A stretch of DNA of 64,000 nt from Verrucomicrobiaceae bacterium (GTDB lineage Bacteria; Verrucomicrobiota; Verrucomicrobiia; Chthoniobacterales; Chthoniobacteraceae), in the NCBI GenBank assembly GCA_043755735.1, contig JAYUSJ010000004.1, positions 4,311-68,310 of the forward strand, in the 5' to 3' direction. The stretch's first letter is position 1; each line of letters opens with the position of its first letter. Made by a program: the position numbers and the translations under genes. A model generated the notes under the pieces. The model was not told where the DNA came from. It was given only the letters and a program-made list of their open reading frames with translations, and did not search any database. Positions 5,584-60,178 of this stretch are shown here, one piece after another.

Positions 5584-5903
5584 GTCCGTGAAAGTTCAAG
5601 TAACTGATATATCCATCAATGAGTGAGATTCGCCGCCGACGGGTGACGGAAGCAAAGATGACATCGGAAAAACATTTTTATTAAACGCGCAAGAGCGTCT
5701 TTTCCCCCGGCAATTTGTATTCCTGAGAATCCGGGCAAACCAAGTCATCCCGAATAGACCGCGTTGCGTCCCCCGGCGGTTTCGCACCCCTCGCCGGTGC
5801 GAACTGCCCGGTTCCCGTTTCGCGACAAGTCACGGCTGAATCGCCCATGACCAAGCGTGCGATTGAATGCGGGTATCGCCCTGCCCGCGGTCAATTGCAC
5901 CGG

Positions 5904-7529
5904 TCATGCGCGGGTGCGCCTGCGTGAAAGTCTGCGATTCACGACATCAATAATATCCCGCATTTCCCGCAGCCTGAGCATATTGGCGACGGCCACAAAT
6001 GCCGCGATGGCCAGAAAAATCGTCATACCCAGACTCAAGAGGCGGATGAAAAAGCTCATCTCCAGCCATTTCGACAAGAACAGCCAGTCGCAACCAACGC
6101 AAACGAGCGCGAGTGCATCGGTCGCGAGAAAGACTTTCACGAGGGTGACGATCAATTGATTCGTCTGGAGATGCCCTATCGACCTGCGCATGAACCAGTA
6201 GAGAAGCGCGAAGGTTGTCAGCGCGACGCAGCCGGTGCTCATCGCCAGGCCCTCATGACCCCAGCCGAGGCTGACAAAAAGCGAGTTGAGCCCGTAGTTC
6301 AGAGCGATGGAGAAAAAGCTCACGTACATCGGAATCTTGCGGCGCTCAATGGCGTAGAATGCGGGCGCCAGCACTTTCATCCCGGCGTAGGCTGCGAGGC
6401 CGAGTGCATACCAGCGGAGCGCGCGCGCCATTTCGATAATGTCCAGCCGGGCGACCTTTTTCCCGTGCTCGAAAATGATGCTCATGATCGGCTCGCCCAG
6501 CAGCCATAGCCCGACGCTCGCCGGAAGCGTGAGGAAAAAGACGAGCCGGATTCCGCGGGCGAGATTCGCGCGGAATTCATCGCGATTTCCGAGGGCCGCA
6601 TTTTTGCTGAGAAGCGGGAGAGTCACAGTCGCCACGGCTACGCCGAACACGCCGAGCGGAAGCTGCATGAGGCGGAATGCGTTGCTCAGCCAAACCACCG
6701 CACCCGGCTGGTCCGCGAGGTGGGTGGCGAAGCTGGTGTTCACCATGACGTTCACCTGCACCGCGCTTGCTGCGACGACTGCCGGTGCCATGATTCGGAG
6801 CACTTCCATCACGGCGGGGTCCTTGAAATTGAAATCGAGTCGCGGTCGATAGCCCGCGCGTCGCAGCGATGGAAACTGAACGGCGAGCTGCATGAAGCCA
6901 CCGATGAGCGTGCCGTAGGCGAGCCCGAACAGCGCGCGCCGTCCGAAGTCATGATCGAGAAACCAGCCGATCGTGAGACCACCGGCAATGCTTCCGATAT
7001 TGAAGAACGCAGACGCCATTGCGGGCCAGCCGAACACGTGCTTCGCGTTCAACATTCCCATGATCTGCGCTGCCAGCGAAACCATGAGGATGAAAGGAAA
7101 CATCGTCATCGTGAGCTGCGCGGTGAGCACTGCGTCGTCACCCGTAAAGCCGCCCGCAATCATCCCCACGAGGAAGGGCGACATTACCATGCCGAGCAGA
7201 GTAATCAGGCCCATCACGATCAGCGTGAGCGTGCCGATTCGATGCGCGAGCCGCCACGCCGAGGCGTCGCCTTCCGTCGCGATTTTCCGGGAAAAGACCG
7301 TGATGAATGCGGTGGAAAGAGCGCCCTCGGCGAAGAGGTCACGCAGCAAATTTGGGATACGAAACGCAGCGGTAAAAAATTTAAGGACCACGGGTCCGAA
7401 GAGCGTCGTCAGTGCGATTTCGCGAATCAGTCCGAGCACTCGCGAGCACATCACCGCGATTCCGACGATCGCGGTGGCTTTGCCGGTGCGCCGGGCCTGC
7501 TTTGCTATCTCGGAGGCCTCTTCAGCCAT
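5904..7529 (-). CDS. murJ: Lipid II flippase MurJ (MviN)
   Basis: This is a 541-aa polytopic membrane protein. It has the MurJ N-terminal pattern VMCSRVLGLIREIALTTLFG..AFRIPNLLRDLFAEGALSTAFITVF. Confidence 0.9.
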   Translation of the reverse strand: MAEEASEIAKQARRTGKATAIVGIAVMCSRVLGLIREIALTTLFGPVVLKFFTAAFRIPNLLRDLFAEGALSTAFITVFSRKIATEGDASAWRLAHRIGTLTLIVMGLITLLGMVMSPFLVGMIAGGFTGDDAVLTAQLTMTMFPFILMVSLAAQIMGMLNAKHVFGWPAMASAFFNIGSIAGGLTIGWFLDHDFGRRALFGLAYGTLIGGFMQLAVQFPSLRRAGYRPRLDFNFKDPAVMEVLRIMAPAVVAASAVQVNVMVNTSFATHLADQPGAVVWLSNAFRLMQLPLGVFGVAVATVTLPLLSKNAALGNRDEFRANLARGIRLVFFLTLPASVGLWLLGEPIMSIIFEHGKKVARLDIIEMARALRWYALGLAAYAGMKVLAPAFYAIERRKIPMYVSFFSIALNYGLNSLFVSLGWGHEGLAMSTGCVALTTFALLYWFMRRSIGHLQTNQLIVTLVKVFLATDALALVCVGCDWLFLSKWLEMSFFIRLLSLGMTIFLAIAAFVAVANMLRLREMRDIIDVVNRRLSRRRTRA

Positions 7530-20026: not shown

Positions 20027-23000
20027 CTACGGCAGTTCGCTGCGGATGATGGCGCTGGTTTTGTCGGTGAAGGTCGCGAGCCAGACGACGAGGGCGGTGT
20101 TGTTGAAACTGCGCGTCACTCCGGCGTTGCCGACGGTCACTTTGAGCAGGGAAAATGTGGCGAGTGTTTTGCCGTGAATGGTCTCGCCAGTGCGGAAGAG
20201 TAGGCGCGGGTTGCCGCCCAAGTCGCACACCCACACGCCGCTGGCGCTGCTGGCGGTGACGCCGCGTTTTGGCACGAGCTGGGCGGCGAAGATGGGGCCT
20301 CTGTCGGTAATGGCGAGGGAGGTGAAAGATTCCCACTGCGAGCCGGGGAGGTCGCCAGCGGCGGTGCCAGTTTGGGCGAGGAGGCGGAGGGGCTGGCCTG
20401 CGGGTTTCCACCAGAGCGTTTTTGCAGTGCTGCCTTTGCGCGTGGCGGTAAATGCGACGCTGCTATTTGCGGAGAGCACGGGGTCGCCGAGGGTGCTGAA
20501 GTCTGCGCCGATGCGGGCGATGGTGGTGTATTGCGCGTCGTCGTCGCCGAGGAAGATGCCGCGTGCGTCTGCTTTCGTCACGCCGCCGGGGCCGATTTTG
20601 AGCGTGGCGAGGAAGGCGGTGTTGGCGCTCTCGTTAATTGCTGGGACGCTGTAGCTGGCGAAGCTTGCACCCGTCAAAGAGGCGTCGAAAATCGTCGTGG
20701 GCGCGTCGCTTCTCGTGAGGATGGAAGTGTCGCCGTTTGCGTTCGCCACGACGATGCCTTGCGTTTTGTCGGTGAATAGCGTCAGCGCGAATGCGACGCC
20801 GGTGCCGGTAGTTGTGAGCCAGCCGCGACCTTGGCCGGGCGAGTCTTTGCCGGGCATGAATGAGATGAGCGTCTTCACGGTTTTCCCTTCGATGGTTTGG
20901 CCTTCGCGCAGGGCCAGCTTCAGCGGGCTTGCGCCGACTTTGAGCCAAAGGCCGAGGTCGCTCGCAGCGGGTGCTTTGAGCTGGGCAAAAATGGCGAGGC
21001 ATCCGCTGCGGACGGCGACGGCTTTGAATTTCTTAAACCTCGCGCCGCCTGCATCCGGCGCGAGGTCGCCGCTCTGGGCGATGGCGCTGAGTGCCACGGA
21101 GCCGCTCAGTACTACGCTGCCGGAGGGTTTTAGCCCGGCAATGGTGGCCACGATTCCGCCGTCCACTACGGGGTCGGTGAAGCTCTTGTAGGCGGCTAAG
21201 TTGATGAGGGTGGGGCTTGTGTTATTGAGGAAAAGCCGGGTGCCTTTATCGTTCGGCCCGGTCGTCCACTTGCCGAGAAATGCCACGTCGCCCGCGTCGT
21301 CGGTCGCGGGTGTGCTGAGGCTCGTGATGATTGCGTTTGGGGGGATGCCATTCGTCCCGATGCCGGGCGCGGCTGTGCCAGTGGTGAGCTGCGTGGTGTG
21401 GATGCGGAGCACGCTGAGGTCGAAGGTCGTGCTGCTCGTATTGCCAGCCGCATCCGTGGCGGTGAGCGTGATGGTGCGGAGGCCCGCCGTGGTGGGACTG
21501 CCGATGGCGGGAGACTGCGTCACCGTGCGCGGGCTCGCGTCCGTCACCACTGCGAGGCTGGTGTAATTTGCGAGCGTCCCCTCGAAGGCTTGCCGAGTCG
21601 CAGCGGGCACGGAGATTTGCGGCGGCGTGGTATCAATCATCACGCCCGCCCGAGTGGCCGAGGCTGGTGGATTTTCTCCATCGTCTTGGTAGCTCAGCGT
21701 CACCGCATACACTCCATCCGGGATCGCCGCGCCACTCGCCACCTGCGCCGAAGCCAGCGGAGCGGCTGGGGAAAAAGAAACGCTGTGCGCGCCGCTCGTC
21801 TCTTGCGAGGCGGCGAGCGTGAGCGTCGTCGTGGTTGTGTCGGTGAAAGTGAGCGTCACCGAGCCCGGCAGCGCGGCTTCAGGAAGGGAGAAAGAAACCG
21901 TCATTGGATTGAGCGAGAGCGCGTTTGCAGCAGGCGCAGTAGGCGTCGGCGCGAGCGCCGTGGAATTTACCGTGAAGGCCGCGACTTGCTCGATCATGCC
22001 CGAGGCGCAGCCGTGAAAGCCGCCCAGCGTGCGGCCACGAGCGCGGACTTGGCCGGTGGTCGGGAGCGCGAGCCCGGTCAGCAGCCAATCCGCCGAAGTG
22101 CCCATGCGAGTCGGGTTACCCAGCGGCATCCACGAGCTACCGCCGTCCGTGCTCAGGTCCAGCGTCACGCTCGCAAGCTCCGGCGCACTACCGCCGCGCG
22201 TCCAGCGCACCCGCGAAGCGCTCAGCGCTGTGAGGCTTTGCGTCGCCGGGTCGTTCAGCAGCCGGGCGAAGTGGTTGCGCGTGGTCGTGTTGAGCCTCGT
22301 GAAGTAGCCGCCCGCGAGAATCTTCCCATCCGCCTGCAACGCCACGCTGCTTACGCGGTCGTTCGCGCTGGGATTAAAGGTCGTGTCGAGCGAACCATCG
22401 GCATTCATCCGCTCGATTCGGTTTCGCACATTATCTCCGAGCAGAATCCTCCCATTCACCTGAAGCGCCATGCTGTGGATGTTATCGTTCGTAGGTGGGA
22501 CAAAGCCCACATCCAGCGTCCCGTCCGCATTCACTCGCGCCAAGTAGTTTCGCGTCGTCGCGCTCGCCGCGCCATTGGGCTGAAGCGCGGTGAAATAGCC
22601 CGCGAACAGAACCTTCCCGTCCGGCTGCACCAGGAGGCTTTCCACACCGCCGTTCGTATTCGGGTTAAAGCCCACGTCGAGCGAGCCGTCCACATTGAAC
22701 CGCGCGACGCAGTTGCGCGTAGTCGCGCTGAACGGGCTGACCCCGCCATTCCGCACCGTCGCGCTGGTGGGCGGGAGTGTGGTAAAGAAGCCGCCAAACA
22801 GGATTTTCCCGTCCGGCTGTACCGCCACGCATTCGACGTAGCTGCTCACGCTGGGACTGAAGCCCGCGTCCAGCGTCCCGTCCACATTCACCCGCGCGAT
22901 ATACTTGCGCATCGTCGCGCTCGCAGCGCCGTTTGACTGGAGCTTGGTGAAATAGCCGCCGAGCAGAATCTTCCCGTCTGCCTGCACCGCCAAGCATCGG

Positions 23001-23485
23001 ACGTGACTGTTTGCATTCGGATCAAAGCCCACCTCGAGCGAACCGTCCGCATTCACCCGAGCGATCCCATTGCGCACCGTCGCGCTGGCCGCGCCGTTTG
23101 GCTGGAGTGTCGTGAAAGCGCCGCCAAGCAAAATTTGCCCATCCGCCTGCACCACCACCGTATGAATCTCGCCGAATACATTGGGGTCAAAGCCAACGTC
23201 CAGCGTCCCATCCCCATTGAGCCGAGCGACATTGCTGCGAGGCACACCCAGCACCGAAGTGAAGCGCCCCGCGAGGATGATCTTCCCATCCGGCTGCACC
23301 GCCGTCGCATACACCGTTGGATACCCGTCGCTGGCTACAACATCCACATTCAGCGAATCCAGATCACCCGGCGCAGCCAACGCACGGCTGGTGGAAAACA
23401 GAAGGAACGCAGCCAGCAATGTGGCGCAGAGGAAGTGGATGGGTGGTCGCATGACGCCGCTGACGGTAGCTGCCTTTCGCAGCAT
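20027..23485 (-). CDS. Giant secreted or surface repeat protein (delta-60 beta-propeller-type repeats, Ig/HYR-like domain, NxxGxxAF-type repeats)
   Basis: The signal peptide is MRPPIHFLCATLLAAFLLFSTSRALA, so the start is possibly at 23452. About 8 N-terminal repeats have the form DGKILLGGxFT..xRNxIARVNADGSLDxxFxP. The central segment TLTATDAAGNTSSTTFDLSV is HYR/Ig-like. The C-terminal part has recurring DDAGDVAFLGK, NESANTAFLATL and ANSSVAFTAT units. Confidence 0.8.
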   Translation of the reverse strand: MLRKAATVSGVMRPPIHFLCATLLAAFLLFSTSRALAAPGDLDSLNVDVVASDGYPTVYATAVQPDGKIILAGRFTSVLGVPRSNVARLNGDGTLDVGFDPNVFGEIHTVVVQADGQILLGGAFTTLQPNGAASATVRNGIARVNADGSLEVGFDPNANSHVRCLAVQADGKILLGGYFTKLQSNGAASATMRKYIARVNVDGTLDAGFSPSVSSYVECVAVQPDGKILFGGFFTTLPPTSATVRNGGVSPFSATTRNCVARFNVDGSLDVGFNPNTNGGVESLLVQPDGKVLFAGYFTALQPNGAASATTRNYLARVNADGTLDVGFVPPTNDNIHSMALQVNGRILLGDNVRNRIERMNADGSLDTTFNPSANDRVSSVALQADGKILAGGYFTRLNTTTRNHFARLLNDPATQSLTALSASRVRWTRGGSAPELASVTLDLSTDGGSSWMPLGNPTRMGTSADWLLTGLALPTTGQVRARGRTLGGFHGCASGMIEQVAAFTVNSTALAPTPTAPAANALSLNPMTVSFSLPEAALPGSVTLTFTDTTTTTLTLAASQETSGAHSVSFSPAAPLASAQVASGAAIPDGVYAVTLSYQDDGENPPASATRAGVMIDTTPPQISVPAATRQAFEGTLANYTSLAVVTDASPRTVTQSPAIGSPTTAGLRTITLTATDAAGNTSSTTFDLSVLRIHTTQLTTGTAAPGIGTNGIPPNAIITSLSTPATDDAGDVAFLGKWTTGPNDKGTRLFLNNTSPTLINLAAYKSFTDPVVDGGIVATIAGLKPSGSVVLSGSVALSAIAQSGDLAPDAGGARFKKFKAVAVRSGCLAIFAQLKAPAASDLGLWLKVGASPLKLALREGQTIEGKTVKTLISFMPGKDSPGQGRGWLTTTGTGVAFALTLFTDKTQGIVVANANGDTSILTRSDAPTTIFDASLTGASFASYSVPAINESANTAFLATLKIGPGGVTKADARGIFLGDDDAQYTTIARIGADFSTLGDPVLSANSSVAFTATRKGSTAKTLWWKPAGQPLRLLAQTGTAAGDLPGSQWESFTSLAITDRGPIFAAQLVPKRGVTASSASGVWVCDLGGNPRLLFRTGETIHGKTLATFSLLKVTVGNAGVTRSFNNTALVVWLATFTDKTSAIIRSELP

Positions 23486-54045: not shown

Positions 54046-57000
54046 TCAGTTCCCATCCTGTTCACGCCAGAATTCCTCGGCGGTTTGTGCGGGCTCATAT
54101 TTCCTTTGATTTCCAGTGGCTGAGATTCGCTCGATAGCCGGATTCTTTCGAAGAGCGGCGACGTTTACCGCATCCTTTGGGATGATGAGGTTGCGAAGCG
54201 TGGACATTCCGGCGAGGGGAGTCAGGTCGGTGACTCCGGAGCCGCGCAGGTCGAGCGCATTGATTTTTGAGTCGGCGAGGACGGAGAGATCACGAAACGC
54301 AGGGTCGCGGATCACGAGAACGGCGATGCCGCTGCTGAGTTGGGCGATGGTGAAATCGAGCCCCTTCAGTTTGGGGAGCCATGTGAAACTGTCCCATTCG
54401 GCCCAGAATTCGGCAGCGGTGCGGGAGGGCCTGTAGGTCTTGGAGTCGAATGTGAAGGAGAGGTATCGCAACCGGGGAAGGGCGCGGAGTTTTTCGACGG
54501 AGGAGGGATGTTCGGGGAGGATTAGCTCCTCCAGCGTTTCCAGGTTGGCGAGGGGCGCGAAGTCCACGGGGGCCTTGCTTTTATCCATGTAGAGGGCGCG
54601 GAGGGGGAGGCTCGCGAGGGGGGTGAGGTCTGTGATGTCGGTGTTGGACATCCAGAGATCTTCGACCTTGGTTCCTTTGAGGGGGGAGAGGTCCGTGACT
54701 TTGGTGTTGGCGATGCGAAGGGTTTTGACGGGGATGGTGATGAGAGGGCTGAGGTCGGAGATTTCGCTGCACGAACTGACGTCGAGGAGGCCGATGTTGC
54801 CGCCTTTGAAAACGGCGAGGTCCGGGAGCGGCTGGCTGTGAGTCATGACGGACCATGTGCCGTCGGGTCGTTTGCCGATGTTGGCCTTGATGCCCATTTT
54901 TCGCAGCGCGCGCTGCCAGCTTGTGTCGGCATCCCACGCAGCCCAAAATGCACCGGTCGATTTCGCTGCTGCCGGGACTTCGCCTTCCGGGAGCTGACTG
55001 CTGAGTCGTTGAAGCGCGGGGTGGTTGCGCAAGCCTTCGATTGCGTCGAGCTCGGACTCCGGGAGCGAAGCGAGGCCTTCCGGCAAGGCGAGCTCTTTGA
55101 GGGTTTTCACCTCGGACAGGGCGGCGAAATTGGTCACGTTTCGGGCTTTGGTGAGCACGAGTGTTTCGAGCGGAATGGCGCGAAGAAATGAGAGATCGCC
55201 GACCGTGGTGCCCTGGAGCCAGAGCTGGCGGAGCGGAACTTTTGCGAGTGGCGAGAAATCGGTGATGTTCGTGTAGGAGCAATCGAGCAACTTGAGCGGC
55301 AGTTCCGCGAGGGGGGCTAACGACCCCACGCCACGCGCGTTCCCCAGCACGAGATGCTCGAGCGGAAGACCACGGAGTGGCGTGAGGTCGCGAACCTCGC
55401 CATGCACCAGCCAAAGCAAGCGCAGAGGCAGTGTGGCGAGGGGACCGAGGTCGGACGCCGGGGTATGGTTCAAATTGAGAGAGTAAAGTGCCCGCGTGGT
55501 GGCGAGCGGGGAAAGGTCGCTGACGGACGTGTGTTCGAGATTGAGGACGCGAAGCGGGGCGTCGCGCAGGGCTTCGATGTCGCGCACGTAATTGCAGCCG
55601 GATAGGTTCAGTTCGCCGAGCGGCATACCTTGGAGCGGACTCAGGTCCGCAATACCGGTGTCCCGCAAGTCGAGCGAAAGAAAGCCGTCGGAGCGCGCCT
55701 CGATTCGTGCGTCGATCGATTTTTCCGTCGGATTGGGCAGGCTACGGAGACGCTCCTGCCAATGGGCGAGCGCGAACTCGTTTTCACGCCCGAGACGACG
55801 GGCGAGCGGCATTGTTTCTGCCGCGGGACGTTTTTCGGCCGAGACAGCATTCAGAAGCTCCGCGAGTGTTTCGCGGGAGAGGCTGCCATCGGGCTGGACC
55901 GGCCGCGCAAGGAGCTTTTCACAAAGCGCGAGGTTATTGCGAGCACGGCGGTCATCCGGCGCGGCATCCAGTGCGGCTCGATAGTCGGCGGCGGCTTCGG
56001 TGAGCCGGCCTTGGGCCTGAAACAAGTCGGCGCGATAAAGACGGAACGAGGCGTTGCCGGGTTGCAAACGGATTGCGTAGTCGAGTTTATCGATTGCCGC
56101 GTTCCACGATTCCGTGGCTGCCAGTTCGCGTGCCATTGCGGCGAAGGCTGGTGCCGTCTGGCGCAGGTCGGAGAGGGCTTGATTTGCGCGACGGGCGTTT
56201 TCATTCGCCCGGACGGCCTGCCATACGCTTACTCCCGTACCCAGCACGAGAGCCATGGACACGATCGCCGCAGTGACGAACGCGCCTTTGTTGCGCATGA
56301 CAAGCCGCCTCGTGCGATATCCGATGGTCGGCGGGCGGGCCACGACTGGCTCTGAGCGCAGGTGCCGCTCGATGTCTTCCGCCATCGCGGTGGCGGAATC
56401 GTAGCGACGATTGCGGTCTTTTTCGATCGCGCGCATGACGATCCAGTCGAGGTCGCGCTTCAGGATGCCGACGAGGTGCGGCGCCTCGGTGTGCCGATGT
56501 CTGGCGACGGCTGCGAGGGCCTCCGGCGCGATGGTTCCCAAGGCTGTCGAGGGGCGTTGCGGTTCCTGCTCCCGGATAATTTTGCGGATACCTTCCACGC
56601 CGTTCTGCTCCATCTGTTCCCTTGTGAAGGGCGTGTGTCCGGTCAGCAGTTCATAAAGGAGGACGCCGAGACTGTACACATCGCTACGGGTGTCGATGTC
56701 GAGCGTGGTGGTCTCCGCCTGCTCGGGCGACATATAGAGCGGCGTTCCGATGATCTGGCCGATCTCGGTGTAGAGCGAGTGTTCGCCGATCCGCGATTGC
56801 GTCGCCTTGGCCACTCCGAAGTCGATAATCTTTGGCATCGGCACGCCGTCCACCATTCCCACAAGAATGTTCGAAGGCTTTAAATCCCGGTGGATGATTC
56901 CCTTTTGGTGCGCGTGATGCACTGCATGGCAAATGCGGACGAAGAGCTCCAGCCGCTCGGTCGTGGAAAGGTCGTGCTCGTCGCAGAATTCGGTGAGCTT

Positions 57001-57513
57001 TGTTCCTCGCACCAGTTCCATGACGAAATACGGACGTCCAGAGGGCGTCACCCCGGCGTCGAAGACCCGTGCGATATTGGGATGATCCATCACCGCGAGG
57101 GCCTGCCGTTCCTGCTCAAATCGGGCGACGACCTCCTTGGTATCCATGCCGAGCTTCACGATTTTCAGCGCAACCCGGCGGCGCACAGGATGCGATTGCT
57201 CGACCATCCACACGACTCCAAATCCGCCATGACCAATCTCTTGCAGAAGACGGTAAGGCCCGATGTTATCGCCTATGTCCTCTGGGACCAGTCGGGCGAT
57301 ACGCGCCTGAATCGAAGGCGAGACGTCTTCCTCCATGAAGCCGTCGGATTCGTGCGACGCGAGGAGCCGCTCCACGCGCTGCTTCAAAGTCGGGTGACCG
57401 TCACACGCAGAATTCACATACGCAGCTCGCTCCTTTGAAGACATTGCTGCGGCAACCAGGAAGATTTCTTCCTCCGAGATCGAATTTTTGTCGGGCATAG
57501 CGCCGGCTTTCAT
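54046..57513 (-). CDS. Receptor-type Ser/Thr protein kinase: cytoplasmic kinase - TM - TPR - two leucine-rich-repeat blocks
   Basis: Hanks motifs are VALKIVK, HRDLKPSNIL, DFGVAKA and LYMSPEQ. The single TM segment is AFVTAAIVSMALVLGTGVSVW. TPR units follow (AIRLQPGNASF..AAADYRAALDAAPDD). About 20 LRR units of ~22 aa are present (L.L..T.V.DLSPL..LPL..L). Confidence 0.88.
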   Translation of the reverse strand: MKAGAMPDKNSISEEEIFLVAAAMSSKERAAYVNSACDGHPTLKQRVERLLASHESDGFMEEDVSPSIQARIARLVPEDIGDNIGPYRLLQEIGHGGFGVVWMVEQSHPVRRRVALKIVKLGMDTKEVVARFEQERQALAVMDHPNIARVFDAGVTPSGRPYFVMELVRGTKLTEFCDEHDLSTTERLELFVRICHAVHHAHQKGIIHRDLKPSNILVGMVDGVPMPKIIDFGVAKATQSRIGEHSLYTEIGQIIGTPLYMSPEQAETTTLDIDTRSDVYSLGVLLYELLTGHTPFTREQMEQNGVEGIRKIIREQEPQRPSTALGTIAPEALAAVARHRHTEAPHLVGILKRDLDWIVMRAIEKDRNRRYDSATAMAEDIERHLRSEPVVARPPTIGYRTRRLVMRNKGAFVTAAIVSMALVLGTGVSVWQAVRANENARRANQALSDLRQTAPAFAAMARELAATESWNAAIDKLDYAIRLQPGNASFRLYRADLFQAQGRLTEAAADYRAALDAAPDDRRARNNLALCEKLLARPVQPDGSLSRETLAELLNAVSAEKRPAAETMPLARRLGRENEFALAHWQERLRSLPNPTEKSIDARIEARSDGFLSLDLRDTGIADLSPLQGMPLGELNLSGCNYVRDIEALRDAPLRVLNLEHTSVSDLSPLATTRALYSLNLNHTPASDLGPLATLPLRLLWLVHGEVRDLTPLRGLPLEHLVLGNARGVGSLAPLAELPLKLLDCSYTNITDFSPLAKVPLRQLWLQGTTVGDLSFLRAIPLETLVLTKARNVTNFAALSEVKTLKELALPEGLASLPESELDAIEGLRNHPALQRLSSQLPEGEVPAAAKSTGAFWAAWDADTSWQRALRKMGIKANIGKRPDGTWSVMTHSQPLPDLAVFKGGNIGLLDVSSCSEISDLSPLITIPVKTLRIANTKVTDLSPLKGTKVEDLWMSNTDITDLTPLASLPLRALYMDKSKAPVDFAPLANLETLEELILPEHPSSVEKLRALPRLRYLSFTFDSKTYRPSRTAAEFWAEWDSFTWLPKLKGLDFTIAQLSSGIAVLVIRDPAFRDLSVLADSKINALDLRGSGVTDLTPLAGMSTLRNLIIPKDAVNVAALRKNPAIERISATGNQRKYEPAQTAEEFWREQDGN

Positions 57514-57572
57514 ACCTACACATGCGTAAAAATCCGAGAAAACCTATCACCCGCGGGCAATTTTTTTAAAAA

Positions 57573-58136
57573 TTAATTGCGCGAGGCCGTGATTTCCAGG
57601 TGGAGCCAGGCCCGCGCATACGCCCAATCCCGGTGCGCGGTAGGAACGGAAATCCCCAGCAGTGGTGCCAGTTCCTCAAACGTCAGCCCCGCAAAATACC
57701 GCATTTTGACGACTTCCGCCTTCCTCGCATCGACCTCCGAGAGCCGGTCGAGCGCATCATTGACTGCGAGAAGCTCGTCGTCCGTCCCGGATGGGGCCAG
57801 AATTTCCACACTATCCACGTCCACATGCTCGGAGTCGCCGGCGCGCCTCGAAGCCGCGCGGCGTCTCGCACTATCCACGAGGATGCGCCGCATCGCCTGC
57901 GCGGCGGCACTGAAAAAATGTGCCCGGCATTCAAATTTGCCGCCTTCCTCCTCGCCCAGGCGAATCCAGGCTTCATGCACCAGCGATGTAGCTTGAAGGG
58001 TGTGGCCGGGCCGCTCGCCCTTCATCTTAAGTGCCGCCATCCTCCGCAACTCGTCGTAAACGAGCGGCAGCAAGTCGTCGCCGGCCCGGTCGTCGCCCGC
58101 GTTGATTGCGCTCAGAAGTTGCGTAATGTCTTGCAC
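57573..58136 (-). CDS. ECF-type RNA polymerase sigma factor (TIGR02999 / kinase-associated ECF group)
   Basis: The N-terminus is ITQLLSAINAGDDRAGDDLLPLVYDELRRMAALKM. Region 2 is TSLVHEAWIRL. Region 4 is RYFAGLTFEELAPLLGISVPTAHRDWAYARAWL. No anti-sigma gene is adjacent. Confidence 0.88.
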   Translation of the reverse strand: MQDITQLLSAINAGDDRAGDDLLPLVYDELRRMAALKMKGERPGHTLQATSLVHEAWIRLGEEEGGKFECRAHFFSAAAQAMRRILVDSARRRAASRRAGDSEHVDVDSVEILAPSGTDDELLAVNDALDRLSEVDARKAEVVKMRYFAGLTFEELAPLLGISVPTAHRDWAYARAWLHLEITASRN

Positions 58137-58175
58137 CTCGCAACGAGTAGCAAATACCTGCCCCCGAATGCCAAC

Positions 58176-59396
58176 CTATTGCGCGGATAATCTTTTCTCG
58201 TGGGCGGCCCCCCATTTGCCATTGGCAAAAGGAAGCACGATGAGATTGAGCGGTGCTGTTTTGTAATGCACGTTGATCTCCATCCCGCGCGACTGGAGCG
58301 CGGAGTAGTCATCCGCGCCGGCCCGCAGCACAAATGCATCCCGCGGAGTCGAATCCCGCACCGCAATATAGACGCTTTCCAACGGCTGCCCCGCCAGATC
58401 CGGCAGAGGCAAGTGCAGGGTGGCGGATTCCAATTGCCCGGCTCCCACCGCCCAGGGTTGCGGTGCGCCGCAGGGCGGTGGCGCGGCGGCGAGCGCCGAC
58501 GGGTGAATGATTCTCCAGTGGCAGTCCACGCCCGACCATGCCTCAAAATCCGCAAGCGAACGTCGCCATCCGAGTCCGTCTTCATCCGCGATGTGTGGAG
58601 CAGGGCCGAAGAGACGCGTCCATTTCGCCACGCTCTTGCGCTGCGCTTCCGTCCATGAACTGGCCGACCCTTCCGGGTGATCATTCCAGTGGCGGGGCGC
58701 TACTTCGCGCCCATATCGGTGCCATGCCGGGGCCTTCCGTGGATGATACACATCGAAGCCGTGGGTGAAGGCGCGGACACTCATGCTGACTTCCTCGCCT
58801 GTAAAGTAGAAATCCGGATCGTATGGAACACGCCTCACGAATTCACCGGGGGCGAAAATGAAGTGCCCCGAGACATAGTGCCCGCGCACCGGTGGCAGTG
58901 CCGGATCGCCCGCGATTTGGTGGGATTTAATGTGTAGCACGCCGTCATGGTCGAAGTGCGATGCGTGCAGAGCGCCTCCGGTATCATCCGCGCGCCATTC
59001 TGCTCCGTCCTTTTCTGCAAAGGGCGGTAGATAGCCGCTGAGCACCGGGAGCCCGGACGGACATCGCGCGAGCTCCGACTGCAGGACGGAGTCCCAACCC
59101 GGCGCAAAGCGATGGTGCGAGTCGAGTTGGAAATAAAACGCCTCGTCTTCGAAGCGCTTCTGAATTTGCGTACGCGCCCAACAAGTCCCGAGGCTGTCCT
59201 CGGGCTTGCAGTGGTCGTGAATGATCGTGACCCCGTGCGGAAACGCCGACTTGGGAAGGGACTCGGAGTCCTGCTCCAACAAAGCAATGACAAGGCGCTC
59301 CGGCTGCGCGGCATTCGCCACGAGATCTGCTATCGTCGCTGCTAGATCCCGGTCCCTGTAAGATGCGACCGAGACAAAAATCCGATTGCCCACCAA
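58176..59396 (-). CDS. GlcNAc-transferase family glycosyltransferase (Pfam PF11397 / CAZy GT60-like) with extra C-terminal domain
   Basis: Family patterns are IFVSVASYRDRDLAATI, ERLVIALLEQD, YFQLDSHHRF and FTGEEVSMSVRAFTHGFDVY. The ORF opens with TTG-GTG directly after an in-frame TAG. Confidence 0.7.
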   Translation of the reverse strand: MVGNRIFVSVASYRDRDLAATIADLVANAAQPERLVIALLEQDSESLPKSAFPHGVTIIHDHCKPEDSLGTCWARTQIQKRFEDEAFYFQLDSHHRFAPGWDSVLQSELARCPSGLPVLSGYLPPFAEKDGAEWRADDTGGALHASHFDHDGVLHIKSHQIAGDPALPPVRGHYVSGHFIFAPGEFVRRVPYDPDFYFTGEEVSMSVRAFTHGFDVYHPRKAPAWHRYGREVAPRHWNDHPEGSASSWTEAQRKSVAKWTRLFGPAPHIADEDGLGWRRSLADFEAWSGVDCHWRIIHPSALAAAPPPCGAPQPWAVGAGQLESATLHLPLPDLAGQPLESVYIAVRDSTPRDAFVLRAGADDYSALQSRGMEINVHYKTAPLNLIVLPFANGKWGAAHEKRLSAQ

Positions 59397-59534
59397 CTAC
59401 GTTGACGGCGTCGGCGTTGGGGTCGGCGTCGGTGTCGGCGTTGGCGTCGGTGTTGGCGTCGGTGTTGGCGTTGGCGTTGGCGTCGGAGTTGGTGTTGGCG
59501 TTGGCGTTGGCGTTGGTGTCGGGATTGGCGGCAT
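59397..59534 (-). CDS. 45-codon mini-ORF encoding MPPI(PT)19PST, in frame with the downstream glycosyltransferase
   Basis: Manual translation from the ATG at 59534 gives 19 consecutive Pro-Thr pairs. All differences between 6-nt units are at third codon positions of this frame (cca/ccg; aca/acg/act/acc). It ends at TAG 59397-59399, immediately before the GT start. It is too short for the ORF track. Confidence 0.45.
59406..59522 (-). repeat. Imperfect hexanucleotide tandem repeat (CCR-ACN)x19.5
   Basis: The plus strand reads (GGCGTT/GGCGTC/GGTGTT/GGTGTC..)n. It spans 117 nt and lies 7 nt upstream of the glycosyltransferase start. Confidence 0.9.
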
Positions 59535-59758
59535 GGCTATTATGGGCTTTGAGTAGGATGCGCTCGCTCGAATGGTTCCTTGTGAAACTCTTGGCTTCGG
59601 TGAATTTTCGCACCCTTCGCAAGTTCACTTAGCGTGACTGTCCACATCCTTTCAAGTCAGTAATTATAGCAAATCCATACCTTGCCATTTGCCCGTTCAC
59701 CATCGCTCCGTCCTTAACGACCTTGCCGTTCCCTCCCGGCTCCGCTATCGCGCGGTGC

Positions 59759-60178
59759 ATGACTCGCGCTGTGGGAATTGATTTTGGCGACGCCCGTGTG
59801 GGCGTCGCGGTGTCGGATGAACTCGGGATGCTTGCGCACCCGTTCGAAACCATCAATGTGCGGGAGACCGATCCCGTCGCCCGCGTCGTGCAAATTGTCG
59901 CGGAAAAGAGCGCAGGCATCGTCATCATCGGTCTGCCGAAGAACATGGACAACACGACCGGCACCGCAGCGGAAAAAGCGCGCGCATTTGCCGACAAACT
60001 GCGCGCTGCGGGCATCACTGTGCGGATGTGGGACGAGCGGCTAAGCACGGTCGCAGCGCAGCGCAATCTCCACGAAGCCGGTCACAACGCGAAGTCCAGC
60101 CGCGCCATTATCGATCAGGCGGCGGCGCAAATCATCCTGCAGGGATGGCTGGATTCGCAGGCGATGTTGGGGACATGA
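59759..60178 (+). CDS. ruvX: Holliday junction resolvase-like protein RuvX (YqgF)
   Basis: Motifs seen are MTRAVGIDFGDARVGVAVSD, VIIGLPKNMDNTTG and WDERLSTVAAQ. The start was set at the ATG at 59759. Confidence 0.88.
   Translation: MTRAVGIDFGDARVGVAVSDELGMLAHPFETINVRETDPVARVVQIVAEKSAGIVIIGLPKNMDNTTGTAAEKARAFADKLRAAGITVRMWDERLSTVAAQRNLHEAGHNAKSSRAIIDQAAAQIILQGWLDSQAMLGT

Follow-up and report, generated by a model that had tools for sequence, protein, structure and literature searches.

The minus strand of a 64,000-nucleotide stretch of the genome of Verrucomicrobiaceae bacterium (assembly GCA_043755735.1, contig JAYUSJ010000004.1, positions 4,311 to 68,310), hereafter called the window, carries a small open reading frame (ORF) of 45 codons plus TAG (59397..59534), which encodes an almost pure (Pro-Thr)n peptide and abuts the gene of a 406-aa glycosyltransferase (GT; 58176..59396, minus strand). 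With a confidence slightly above even, we lean towards the reading that the micro-protein specified by this micro-ORF is encoded in cis and coupled in translation to a cytoplasmic polypeptide N-acetylhexosamine (HexNAc) transferase, for which it serves as acceptor. A cis-encoded acceptor was one of three possibilities raised in a first-pass annotation of the window; it is favoured by the conserved Pro/Thr-rich (P/T-rich) ORFs upstream of related GTs, by the conservation of their amino-acid sequences and by what the GT resembles, and on these grounds we infer the acceptor role itself.

Read from the ATG at 59534, the minus strand runs ATG CCG CCA ATC, 19 CCN-ACN hexamers, CCG TCA ACG and TAG, and is translated as MPPI (59534-59523), (PT)19 (59522-59409) and PST (59408-59400) before the stop at 59399-59397, just as the first-pass annotation had read it. 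The GT start, TTG-GTG-GGC-AAT, follows with zero spacer and in the same frame, its TTG at 59396, again as first described. Within the 19 hexamers, positions 1, 2, 4 and 5 are invariant, position 3 is A in 11 units and G in 8, and position 6 is G in 12, A in 5 and T and C in one each. The earlier statements that all differences between units lie at third codon positions of the PT frame, and that the same differences are non-synonymous (N/D/T/S and A/P) in the ORF at 58984..59628, both held. In Tandem Repeats Finder the tract appears as an array of period 6, 12 or 30 with 80-84% matches. Among the 471 ATG-initiated ORFs of at least 25 aa in the window, the micro-ORF is the only one with a 20-aa stretch of at least 70% Pro plus Thr, and no model in Pfam, NCBIfam or PHROGs matched the PT peptides. 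The GT start region contains the sequence GUUGGUG (59380-59400), which is complementary to CACCAAC motifs of the tract and is paired in the minimum-free-energy fold; as the complementarity is not conserved in two related loci (L003 and L004), it is probably incidental.

The same arrangement was found in related genomes. Scanning one genome per species brought up five loci (GT identities 89, 83, 60, 55 and 63%) from Verrucomicrobiaceae, Chthoniobacteraceae, an unclassified Verrucomicrobiota bin and a metagenome-assembled genome (MAG) of Prosthecobacter debontii (L005); look-ups of single homologs added L007, L008, L009/L010, L091, L092, L093 and L094. Of the related loci, 13 retain about 35 nt or more before the GT, and each of these has a small P/T-rich ORF there (L001-L005, L007-L011 and L091-L094, with L011 equal to L010 over the stretch), across GT identities from 89 down to 34%; L013, with only 24 nt retained upstream of the GT, was uninformative. 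To the question raised in the first-pass annotation, whether relatives have a PT tract upstream of the GT, in which frame and with or without a stop, the answer is a P/T-rich ORF in 13 of 13 usable loci, ended by a stop but not in a constant frame relative to the GT. A small precursor-like gene adjoining a modifying enzyme, the arrangement looked for in ribosomally synthesized and post-translationally modified peptides (RiPPs), is accordingly present in every one of them. The upstream ORF starts with ATG in all 11 loci where it is complete (L002 and L092 are cut by contig ends).

Peptide length varies from 22 to 120 aa among the related loci and the P/T composition is constant. The closest homolog, L001, encodes MPPI(PT)22PST; L002 is partial, its contig beginning within the tract. 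L003 (96 aa) and L005 (120 aa) are built of PTPTPTPI and PT units, L004 encodes M(TP)7SIPPTYT, L008 M(TP)9SIPPRYT and L091 MS(TP)28TRP, and L092, whose contig also begins within the tract, ends in PTPTPSPTPH. In more distant relatives the repeat dissolves. The L007 peptide (5816-5968; GT 45% identical) is non-repetitive and reads MEPLPSNAYPPPTCTPTLLPTYLPTTTMIPTATLIPTMTVTCIPIPPPSK, and the 81-aa ORF of L094 (133-378; GT 46% identical) has the same TC...TC core followed by a Lys-rich tail. L009 (89 aa; GT 35% identical) contains three PSATPPPITMPVPSATPK units, and L093 (79 aa; GT 34% identical) has a (PT)5 core. In the subclade of 444-aa GTs to which L007 and L094 belong, two conserved Cys residues (TC...TC) flank [LIM][LI]PT repeats in the peptide, and the enzymes themselves are extended at the C-terminus by a basic stretch of about 40 aa. 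The C-termini of the peptides differ among loci (PST, PSPAE, PARH, PTLL, SIPPTYT, PTRP, PTPH). Several contigs start inside a P/T tract (L002:1-36, L092:1-93, L010 and L011), and because assemblies break at the repeat, the unit counts of MAGs, possibly including the 19 of the window, may be imprecise.

The junction between the two genes takes several forms. In the window, L001 and L002, TAG is followed at once by TTG in the same frame as the GT. In L091 and L092 the stop (TGA or TAG) is separated from a GTG start by 3 nt, one codon, again in frame, and in L003, L004, L005 and L008 the TGA overlaps the TTG start by two bases (TTGA), which places the peptide in a different frame from the GT. In L007, L094, L009 and L093 a spacer of 26-46 nt separates the peptide ORF from a GT with its own ATG or GTG start. 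In L093 a perfect hairpin, AGCTTCGG-ttacc-CCGAAGCT (824-850), extends from the stop codon of the P/T-rich ORF to just before the GT start, a kind of hairpin that sets precursor-to-enzyme ratios in some peptide-modification operons. The same-frame layout of the window is one variant of a stop-start junction and is therefore incidental.

This geometry bears directly on the two other possibilities of the first-pass annotation, that the tract is a PT linker at the N-terminus of the enzyme, expressed when the TAG is read through, or the relic of such a linker severed by a nonsense mutation or an assembly error. The shared frame, with peptide and GT zero or one codon apart in the window, L001, L002, L091 and L092, is what either version would predict. 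Read-through is contradicted by the different frame in L003, L004, L005 and L008, by the 26-46 nt spacers and by the absence of any N-terminal PT run fused to the GT in the 120 homologs listed, all of which begin 2-10 aa before the IFVSIA(A/S)YRD strand. A severed linker fares no better against the frame differences and the spacers of L007, L094, L009 and L093; moreover, a stop is present in every locus, and the window TAG recurs in two independent MAG assemblies (L001 and L002), so that three independent assemblies of the closest lineage carry it. There is also nothing to link, as MPPI alone precedes the tract. Stop-codon reassignment was ruled out as well, since TAG is an ordinary stop in this genome and terminates 10 of the 32 long ORFs of the window, including the GT itself. 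We regard a linker in either version as extremely improbable.

Which strand of the tract is coding required comparative data. The first-pass annotation had taken the wobble pattern as the mark of purifying selection on the PT frame. The pattern is there, but it is not sufficient: moving the reverse complement of CCN-ACN by one base gives GTN-GGN, and an antisense (Gly-Val)n ORF on the plus strand (59386-59556) is therefore equally free of non-synonymous variation, so that wobble alone cannot assign the coding strand. This synonymous antisense frame was absent from the first-pass annotation. Between the window and L001 micro-ORFs, 15-23 codon differences are synonymous and 3 non-synonymous, and by codon position the differences number 2, 2 and 17, the bias to third positions of the PT frame that had been expected of such a tabulation; the three non-synonymous differences are artefacts of register where the tract begins and ends. 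Over 44 aa the peptides of L007 and L094 share 50% identity, while their GTs share 73%. L007 has stops in all three antisense frames and L093 in all five other frames. Together, the non-repetitive homologs and the synonymous excess settle the question for the sense P/T frame, which is coding and conserved in its amino-acid sequence.

The same data speak against the tract being something other than a PT gene, either a hexanucleotide simple-sequence repeat acting as a contingency locus or the antisense (Gly-Val)n ORF at 59386-59556. Tract length differs widely among lineages, contigs break within it and the antisense frame shows the same synonymous pattern, all in favour of such a reading. A 6-nt unit, however, cannot switch the reading frame: it lies inside the ORF, and the length differences between loci are whole codon pairs, unlike those of a phase-variation locus. 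Only the sense strand has a conserved ATG and a conserved stop where the GT begins, the antisense frames of the non-repetitive L007 and L093 are closed by stops, and the P/T composition is retained in distant homologs where the DNA repeat has been lost. It is hardly conceivable that the tract is of either kind.

Codon usage in the tracts is peculiar nonetheless. Third codon positions of the repeat-type tracts (window, L001, L003, L004, L005, L008 and L091) are about 92% purine, that is CCR ACR. Pooled over the seven loci, the micro-ORFs use the Pro codons CCA/CCG/CCC/CCT 89/98/9/4 times and the Thr codons ACA/ACG/ACC/ACT 69/95/10/9 times, whereas the flanking genes of the window use them 15/55/44/12 and 21/34/49/10 times; unlike the tracts, these genes favour CCC/CCG and ACC/ACG. 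The CCR-ACR bias may come from transition-only drift of an amplified CCAACG unit, from selection for an unstructured, CA-rich message, or from particular tRNAs.

The enzyme downstream of the micro-ORF belongs to a known family. The profile check proposed in the first-pass annotation gave a clear match of the GT to PF11397, 'Glycosyltransferase (GlcNAc)', with E = 1.5e-58 and 199.4 bits against a cut-off of 21, and PF11397 is carried by all 120 homologs listed. In an alignment of 69 homologs, D92-x-H94 (D92-S-H94 in the window) and H226 are invariant, among other residues. The AlphaFold2 model (mean pLDDT 93.2, pTM 0.89) consists of a GT-A domain followed by an alpha/beta C-terminal domain of about 120 residues. 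In a Foldseek search of the PDB the top 35 matches were all polypeptide GalNAc-transferases (E 8e-11 to about 1e-8), including GalNAc-T1, T2, T4, PGANT9 and Toxoplasma GalNAc-T3, several of them solved with mucin glycopeptides; a sequence search of the PDB found no relative. The GT matched no NCBIfam model and matched the phage family phrog_24687 at 4e-58. Inspection by eye revealed no signal peptide or transmembrane segment. From the modelled fold, the GT looks like a polypeptide O-HexNAc transferase.

The family to which PF11397 corresponds, GT60, comprises polypeptide alpha-GlcNAc-transferases that initiate mucin-type O-glycosylation of Ser/Thr-rich domains in protists and is confined to protists and prokaryotes; it lacks the ricin-like domain of GT27, with which it has in common a DxH motif and the mode of Ser/Thr glycosylation (PMC8724618, PMC7185993). 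A DxH rather than DxD metal motif has been described for both GT60 and GT27 (PMC7185993). In the window peptide, each Thr of (PT)n has Pro at -1, +1 and +3. These are the positions at which GT27 enzymes favour Pro around the acceptor Thr.

The association of P/T tracts with PF11397 genes is specific. In 11 related loci (103 kb) only 7 of 726 ORFs are P/T-rich, and all seven lie directly upstream of the GT. A metagenome scan collected 80 distant PF11397 loci (29-42% identity), in which we defined an upstream slot as a same-strand ORF ending between -40 and +150 nt from the GT. P/T tracts occur in 17 of the 2,255 ORFs of these loci, and 10 of the 17 occupy the upstream slot, compared with 100 of the 2,238 others (odds ratio 30.5, Fisher P = 7e-10). 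In distant loci the tract sits inside larger proteins: an RCC1-repeat protein (L089), phrog_15511 proteins (L049, L067 and L077) and a Hint-domain protein (L069) next to the GT, and in L079 a 159-aa ORF (1983-2462) in which a PqqD/RRE-like domain (PF05402, E = 1.9e-8) and a hydrophobic stretch are combined with a C-terminal PT tail. On this GC-rich contig the 159-aa ORF stops 5 nt before a PF11397 GT whose core begins at 2467, which hints that some PF11397 members may work in RiPP-like settings. A looser composition screen added L034, where a 154-aa ORF has a Tat/lipoprotein-like N-terminus by eye followed by P/T/S-rich repeats, and L065, where an inner ATG-ORF begins MTPSPSPT. Many distant loci (for example L014, L017, L020, L029 and L039) have tandem PF11397-like paralogs, with a second core motif ILVHLPAYRE, and phage-like neighbours. 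An upstream P/T tract is thus a tendency of the PF11397 family, and among the Verrucomicrobial members it has shrunk to a micro-protein that stands alone.

The junctions also suit a purely translational explanation, in which the micro-ORF is only a device: an unstructured, CA-rich leader ORF that delivers ribosomes to a weak TTG or GTG start without a Shine-Dalgarno (SD) motif, its peptide being functionless, with a variant in which expression might be tuned through the availability of Pro- or Thr-tRNA or of EF-P. Stop and start abut or overlap in all nine close-clade loci and their GT starts are not ATG; around the tract, the mRNA shows less structure than shuffled sequence does (z = +1.59); the third-position bias resembles a constraint at the RNA level; PP motifs stand near some ORF ends (MPPI, SIPPTYT); and a short ORF in a 5' leader is what a leader peptide or attenuator calls for. 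Against it, the uncoupled loci L007, L094, L009 and L093 keep P/T-rich ORFs that are non-repetitive, draw on all codons and are conserved as proteins, and in distant loci the tract is part of large proteins. A length of 22-120 aa and the lack of a conserved C-terminal arrest motif are atypical of leader peptides, and no alternative hairpins, coding-strand terminator or Rfam match (leader searched at E up to 1) were found. The micro-ORF leader has no SD motif, and SD-like motifs precede only 3 of 32 long ORFs window-wide, their starts being approximated as the first start codon after a stop. This suggests that initiation in the organism may be mostly SD-independent, and because SD-less initiation is the norm in this genome, no special ribosome loader is needed. 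A mere translational device is, in our view, rather unlikely.

Under the acceptor reading, by comparison, the micro-ORF would be a real translated gene whose nearly pure (Pro-Thr)n product of 45 residues serves as the dedicated acceptor of the GT. Peptide and enzyme would be made from one mRNA, probably also carrying the genes of an extracytoplasmic function (ECF) sigma factor and a Ser/Thr kinase. Ribosomes that finish the peptide at the TAG would re-initiate at the abutting TTG (in orthologs, at the TTGA overlap or across the 3-nt gap), and such re-initiation at the stop-start junction would tie enzyme synthesis to substrate synthesis. The soluble, cytoplasmic GT60-type GT-A enzyme, with its DxH metal site, would then move HexNAc, most likely GlcNAc from UDP-GlcNAc, to Thr hydroxyls, and the product would be a densely O-glycosylated, mucin-like micro-glycopeptide. 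Translation of the peptide, its acceptor role, the identity of the sugar donated and what the product does in the cell are the parts of this scheme that we infer. A further reading, to which we give a low probability, has the glycopeptide as a protectant resembling mucins or antifreeze glycoproteins; several of the source metagenomes appear to be from cold freshwater or glacier-fed streams, judged from the record names only.

Downstream of the GT, the minus strand of the window encodes an ECF-type sigma factor of 187 aa (57573..58136; PF07638 E = 2e-56, TIGR02999 E = 8e-64), 39 nt beyond the GT stop, and a 1155-aa Ser/Thr protein kinase that also contains TPR and LRR regions (54046..57513; Pkinase E = 1e-44, TPR, LRR_4). 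By tblastn, the order PT-ORF, GT, ECF sigma factor and kinase is conserved co-directionally in the window, L001-L004, L008, L091 and L092. Kinase orthologs, 49-93% identical, are adjacent in every close-clade locus with enough DNA, and in L007 and L094 the orthologous kinase is convergent on the GT. The upstream neighbour varies: the window and L001 have ruvX, L008 a sulfatase and L091 a DUF1501 gene. A PF07638/TIGR02999 sigma factor with an adjacent Hanks-type kinase and, judged from gene order only, no anti-sigma factor corresponds to an ECF43-like module; sigma factors of this type lack anti-sigma factors and become active when Hanks kinases phosphorylate them directly (PMC13147305). These partners, too, had been missed in the first-pass annotation.

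The 5' leader of the micro-ORF (59535..59671, minus strand) contains a promoter-like element, an extended -10-like TGcTATAAT (59671-59663) and CTTGAA (59656-59651), the latter 122 nt before the ATG. Seven close loci (window, L001, L003, L004, L005, L008 and L091) share a TAAT-N4-5-CTTGAA element at 106-122 nt before the ATG of the micro-ORF. A consensus scan of 57400-59800 found no canonical sigma-70 promoter and did not match TAAT-N4-5-CTTGAA either; if CTTGAA is taken as part of a -35/-10 pair, its spacing to -10-like hexamers is inconsistent between loci. Terminator-like sites were absent from the minus strand of 57400-59800, including between the genes. The only matches were on the plus strand, and the one located in the tract is apparently spurious, produced by G-T pairing within the repeat. 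Elsewhere in the window, a 165-nt tandem repeat (2.2 copies, 75% match, 22860-23229) lies inside a 1152-aa ORF (20027-23485, minus strand).

The conserved block invites the explanation that micro-protein and GT do not form a product together but serve regulation within the ECF sigma/kinase pathway. The peptide could then be a pseudo-substrate, decoy or anti-sigma-like partner with Thr-Pro sites that are phosphorylated by the kinase, glycosylated by the GT or both; or the GT could modify the sigma factor or the kinase. The co-directional order, the kinase abutting the GT in L007 and L094, the change of neighbour upstream of the block, the lack of terminator-like sites on the coding strand between its genes and the control of ECF43-type sigma factors by Hanks kinase phosphorylation instead of anti-sigma factors (PMC13147305) all agree with it. 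Yet the peptide-GT pair stands without sigma factor or kinase in the Chthoniobacter-like L009 and L093, and likewise in distant and phage-like loci, which makes the pair the older unit, and nothing ties (PT)n to sigma binding. In part the explanation overlaps with the acceptor reading, as the peptide would still be the acceptor of the GT. A purely regulatory role strikes us as unlikely. We give a distinctly low probability to a more specific form, in which the PT micro-protein is a signalling element whose same Thr-Pro sites are O-HexNAc-modified by the GT and phosphorylated by the kinase, and whose state controls the ECF sigma factor. If true, this would be a bacterial counterpart of the eukaryotic cross-talk between O-GlcNAc and phosphorylation, acting on a genetically encoded pure-repeat substrate.

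What the acceptor reading builds on was observed directly: the conservation of the ORF, the geometry of its junction with the GT, the family and fold of the enzyme, the synteny of the block and the family-wide upstream association. Several points nevertheless weigh against it. The bias, almost exclusively to purines, points to an additional constraint at the RNA or DNA level, or to repeat dynamics, outside a substrate model. The peptide has no recognisable leader or signal peptide and no protease or transporter partner, none being present in the conserved block according to the gene tables of the related loci. The tight linkage to the ECF sigma factor and kinase means that those proteins could be the real targets of the enzyme. 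An upstream P/T-tract ORF was found in only 10 of the 80 distant PF11397 loci, so that the pairing is not universal in the family. Finally, Gnt1, a member of the PF11397 family, acts on hydroxyproline and not on Thr.

Among characterized systems, the closest to the window GT are the protist GT60 enzymes, the pp-alphaGlcNAcT of Dictyostelium and Trypanosoma cruzi and the Gnt1/Skp1 pair, with which it has PF11397, the GT-A fold, the DxH motif and the lack of a ricin-like lectin domain in common. The acceptors of the protist enzymes are Thr/Ser in Pro/Thr-rich, mucin-like sequences, or hydroxyproline for Gnt1, and like the cytoplasmic Gnt1 the window GT appears to be soluble and without a membrane anchor (PMC8724618, PMC7185993). 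It differs from them in being bacterial, in having as presumed acceptor a separate, coupled upstream micro-protein instead of a large mucin or Skp1, in lacking a linked prolyl hydroxylase, in lying within an ECF sigma/kinase block and in its C-terminal alpha/beta domain of about 120 aa. The GT27 GalNAc-transferases (GalNAc-T1, T2, T4, T12, PGANT9 and Toxoplasma GalNAc-T3) are its best structural matches and have the same DxH metal site, but identity to them is 11-18%, they belong to another Pfam and CAZy family, and unlike these Golgi type II membrane proteins the window GT has no lectin domain and is predicted to be cytoplasmic.

Parallels exist in bacteria as well. As in glycocins and other glycosylated RiPPs (sublancin SunA/SunS, glycocin F), a small peptide gene stands beside that of a GT-A enzyme, which in those systems modifies the peptide, and the distant L079 alone adds a PqqD/RRE-like domain with a PT tail upstream of the GT. 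Unlike glycocin loci, the PT-GT block has no leader/core organization (at most 4 residues precede the tract), protease, ABC exporter or immunity gene, and it pairs a GT60-like enzyme with a low-complexity repeat of many potential sites, where glycocins pair a SunS-type GT2 with a structured bacteriocin modified at one or two. The serine-rich repeat adhesins of Gram-positive bacteria, modified by GtfA-GtfB, resemble the window pair in the cytoplasmic O-GlcNAc-type modification, here putative, of a repetitive tract of hydroxy amino acids by an enzyme of the same locus; they differ in their huge, secreted, Ser-rich substrates, accessory Sec system and GT-B (GT4) enzymes. The neighbouring genes, for a PF07638/TIGR02999 sigma factor and a transmembrane Ser/Thr kinase beside it, match in layout the ECF43-type sigma/Hanks kinase pairs EcfP-PknT and EcfK-PknS (PMC13147305). 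We found no report of a GT or a PT micro-ORF as a conserved member of an ECF43-type operon, nor of a bacterial GT60/PF11397 member with an assigned acceptor or role. Searches of the literature on PF11397/GT60 in bacteria, on Pro-Thr small ORFs with glycosyltransferases and on proline-rich glycosylated RiPPs turned up no account of a bacterial pairing of a PT micro-ORF with a GT60 enzyme, in agreement with the first-pass annotation. The parts are known, both GT60/GT27-type peptide O-glycosylation and an enzyme with a cis-encoded peptide substrate, and it is the signalling context that is unusual.

The finding adds to Verrucomicrobial genomes a conserved small protein that gene finders usually miss or mis-call, and it connects protein glycosylation with an ECF sigma/Ser-Thr kinase circuit. 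Prosthecobacter has cultured strains and, since the cassette occurs in this genus (L005, the P. debontii MAG), the pairing is directly testable. A two-gene cassette making poly-glycosylated (PT)n could also be a tool for defined mucin-like glycopeptides. That PF11397 genes follow P/T-tract ORFs, in phage-like loci as well, suggests a general rule for predicting acceptors in the family. If the acceptor reading is true, bacterial GT60 enzymes would gain a concrete, testable substrate, and mucin-type O-glycosylation of Thr would have a minimal, self-contained bacterial form consisting of one enzyme and one repeat micro-protein.

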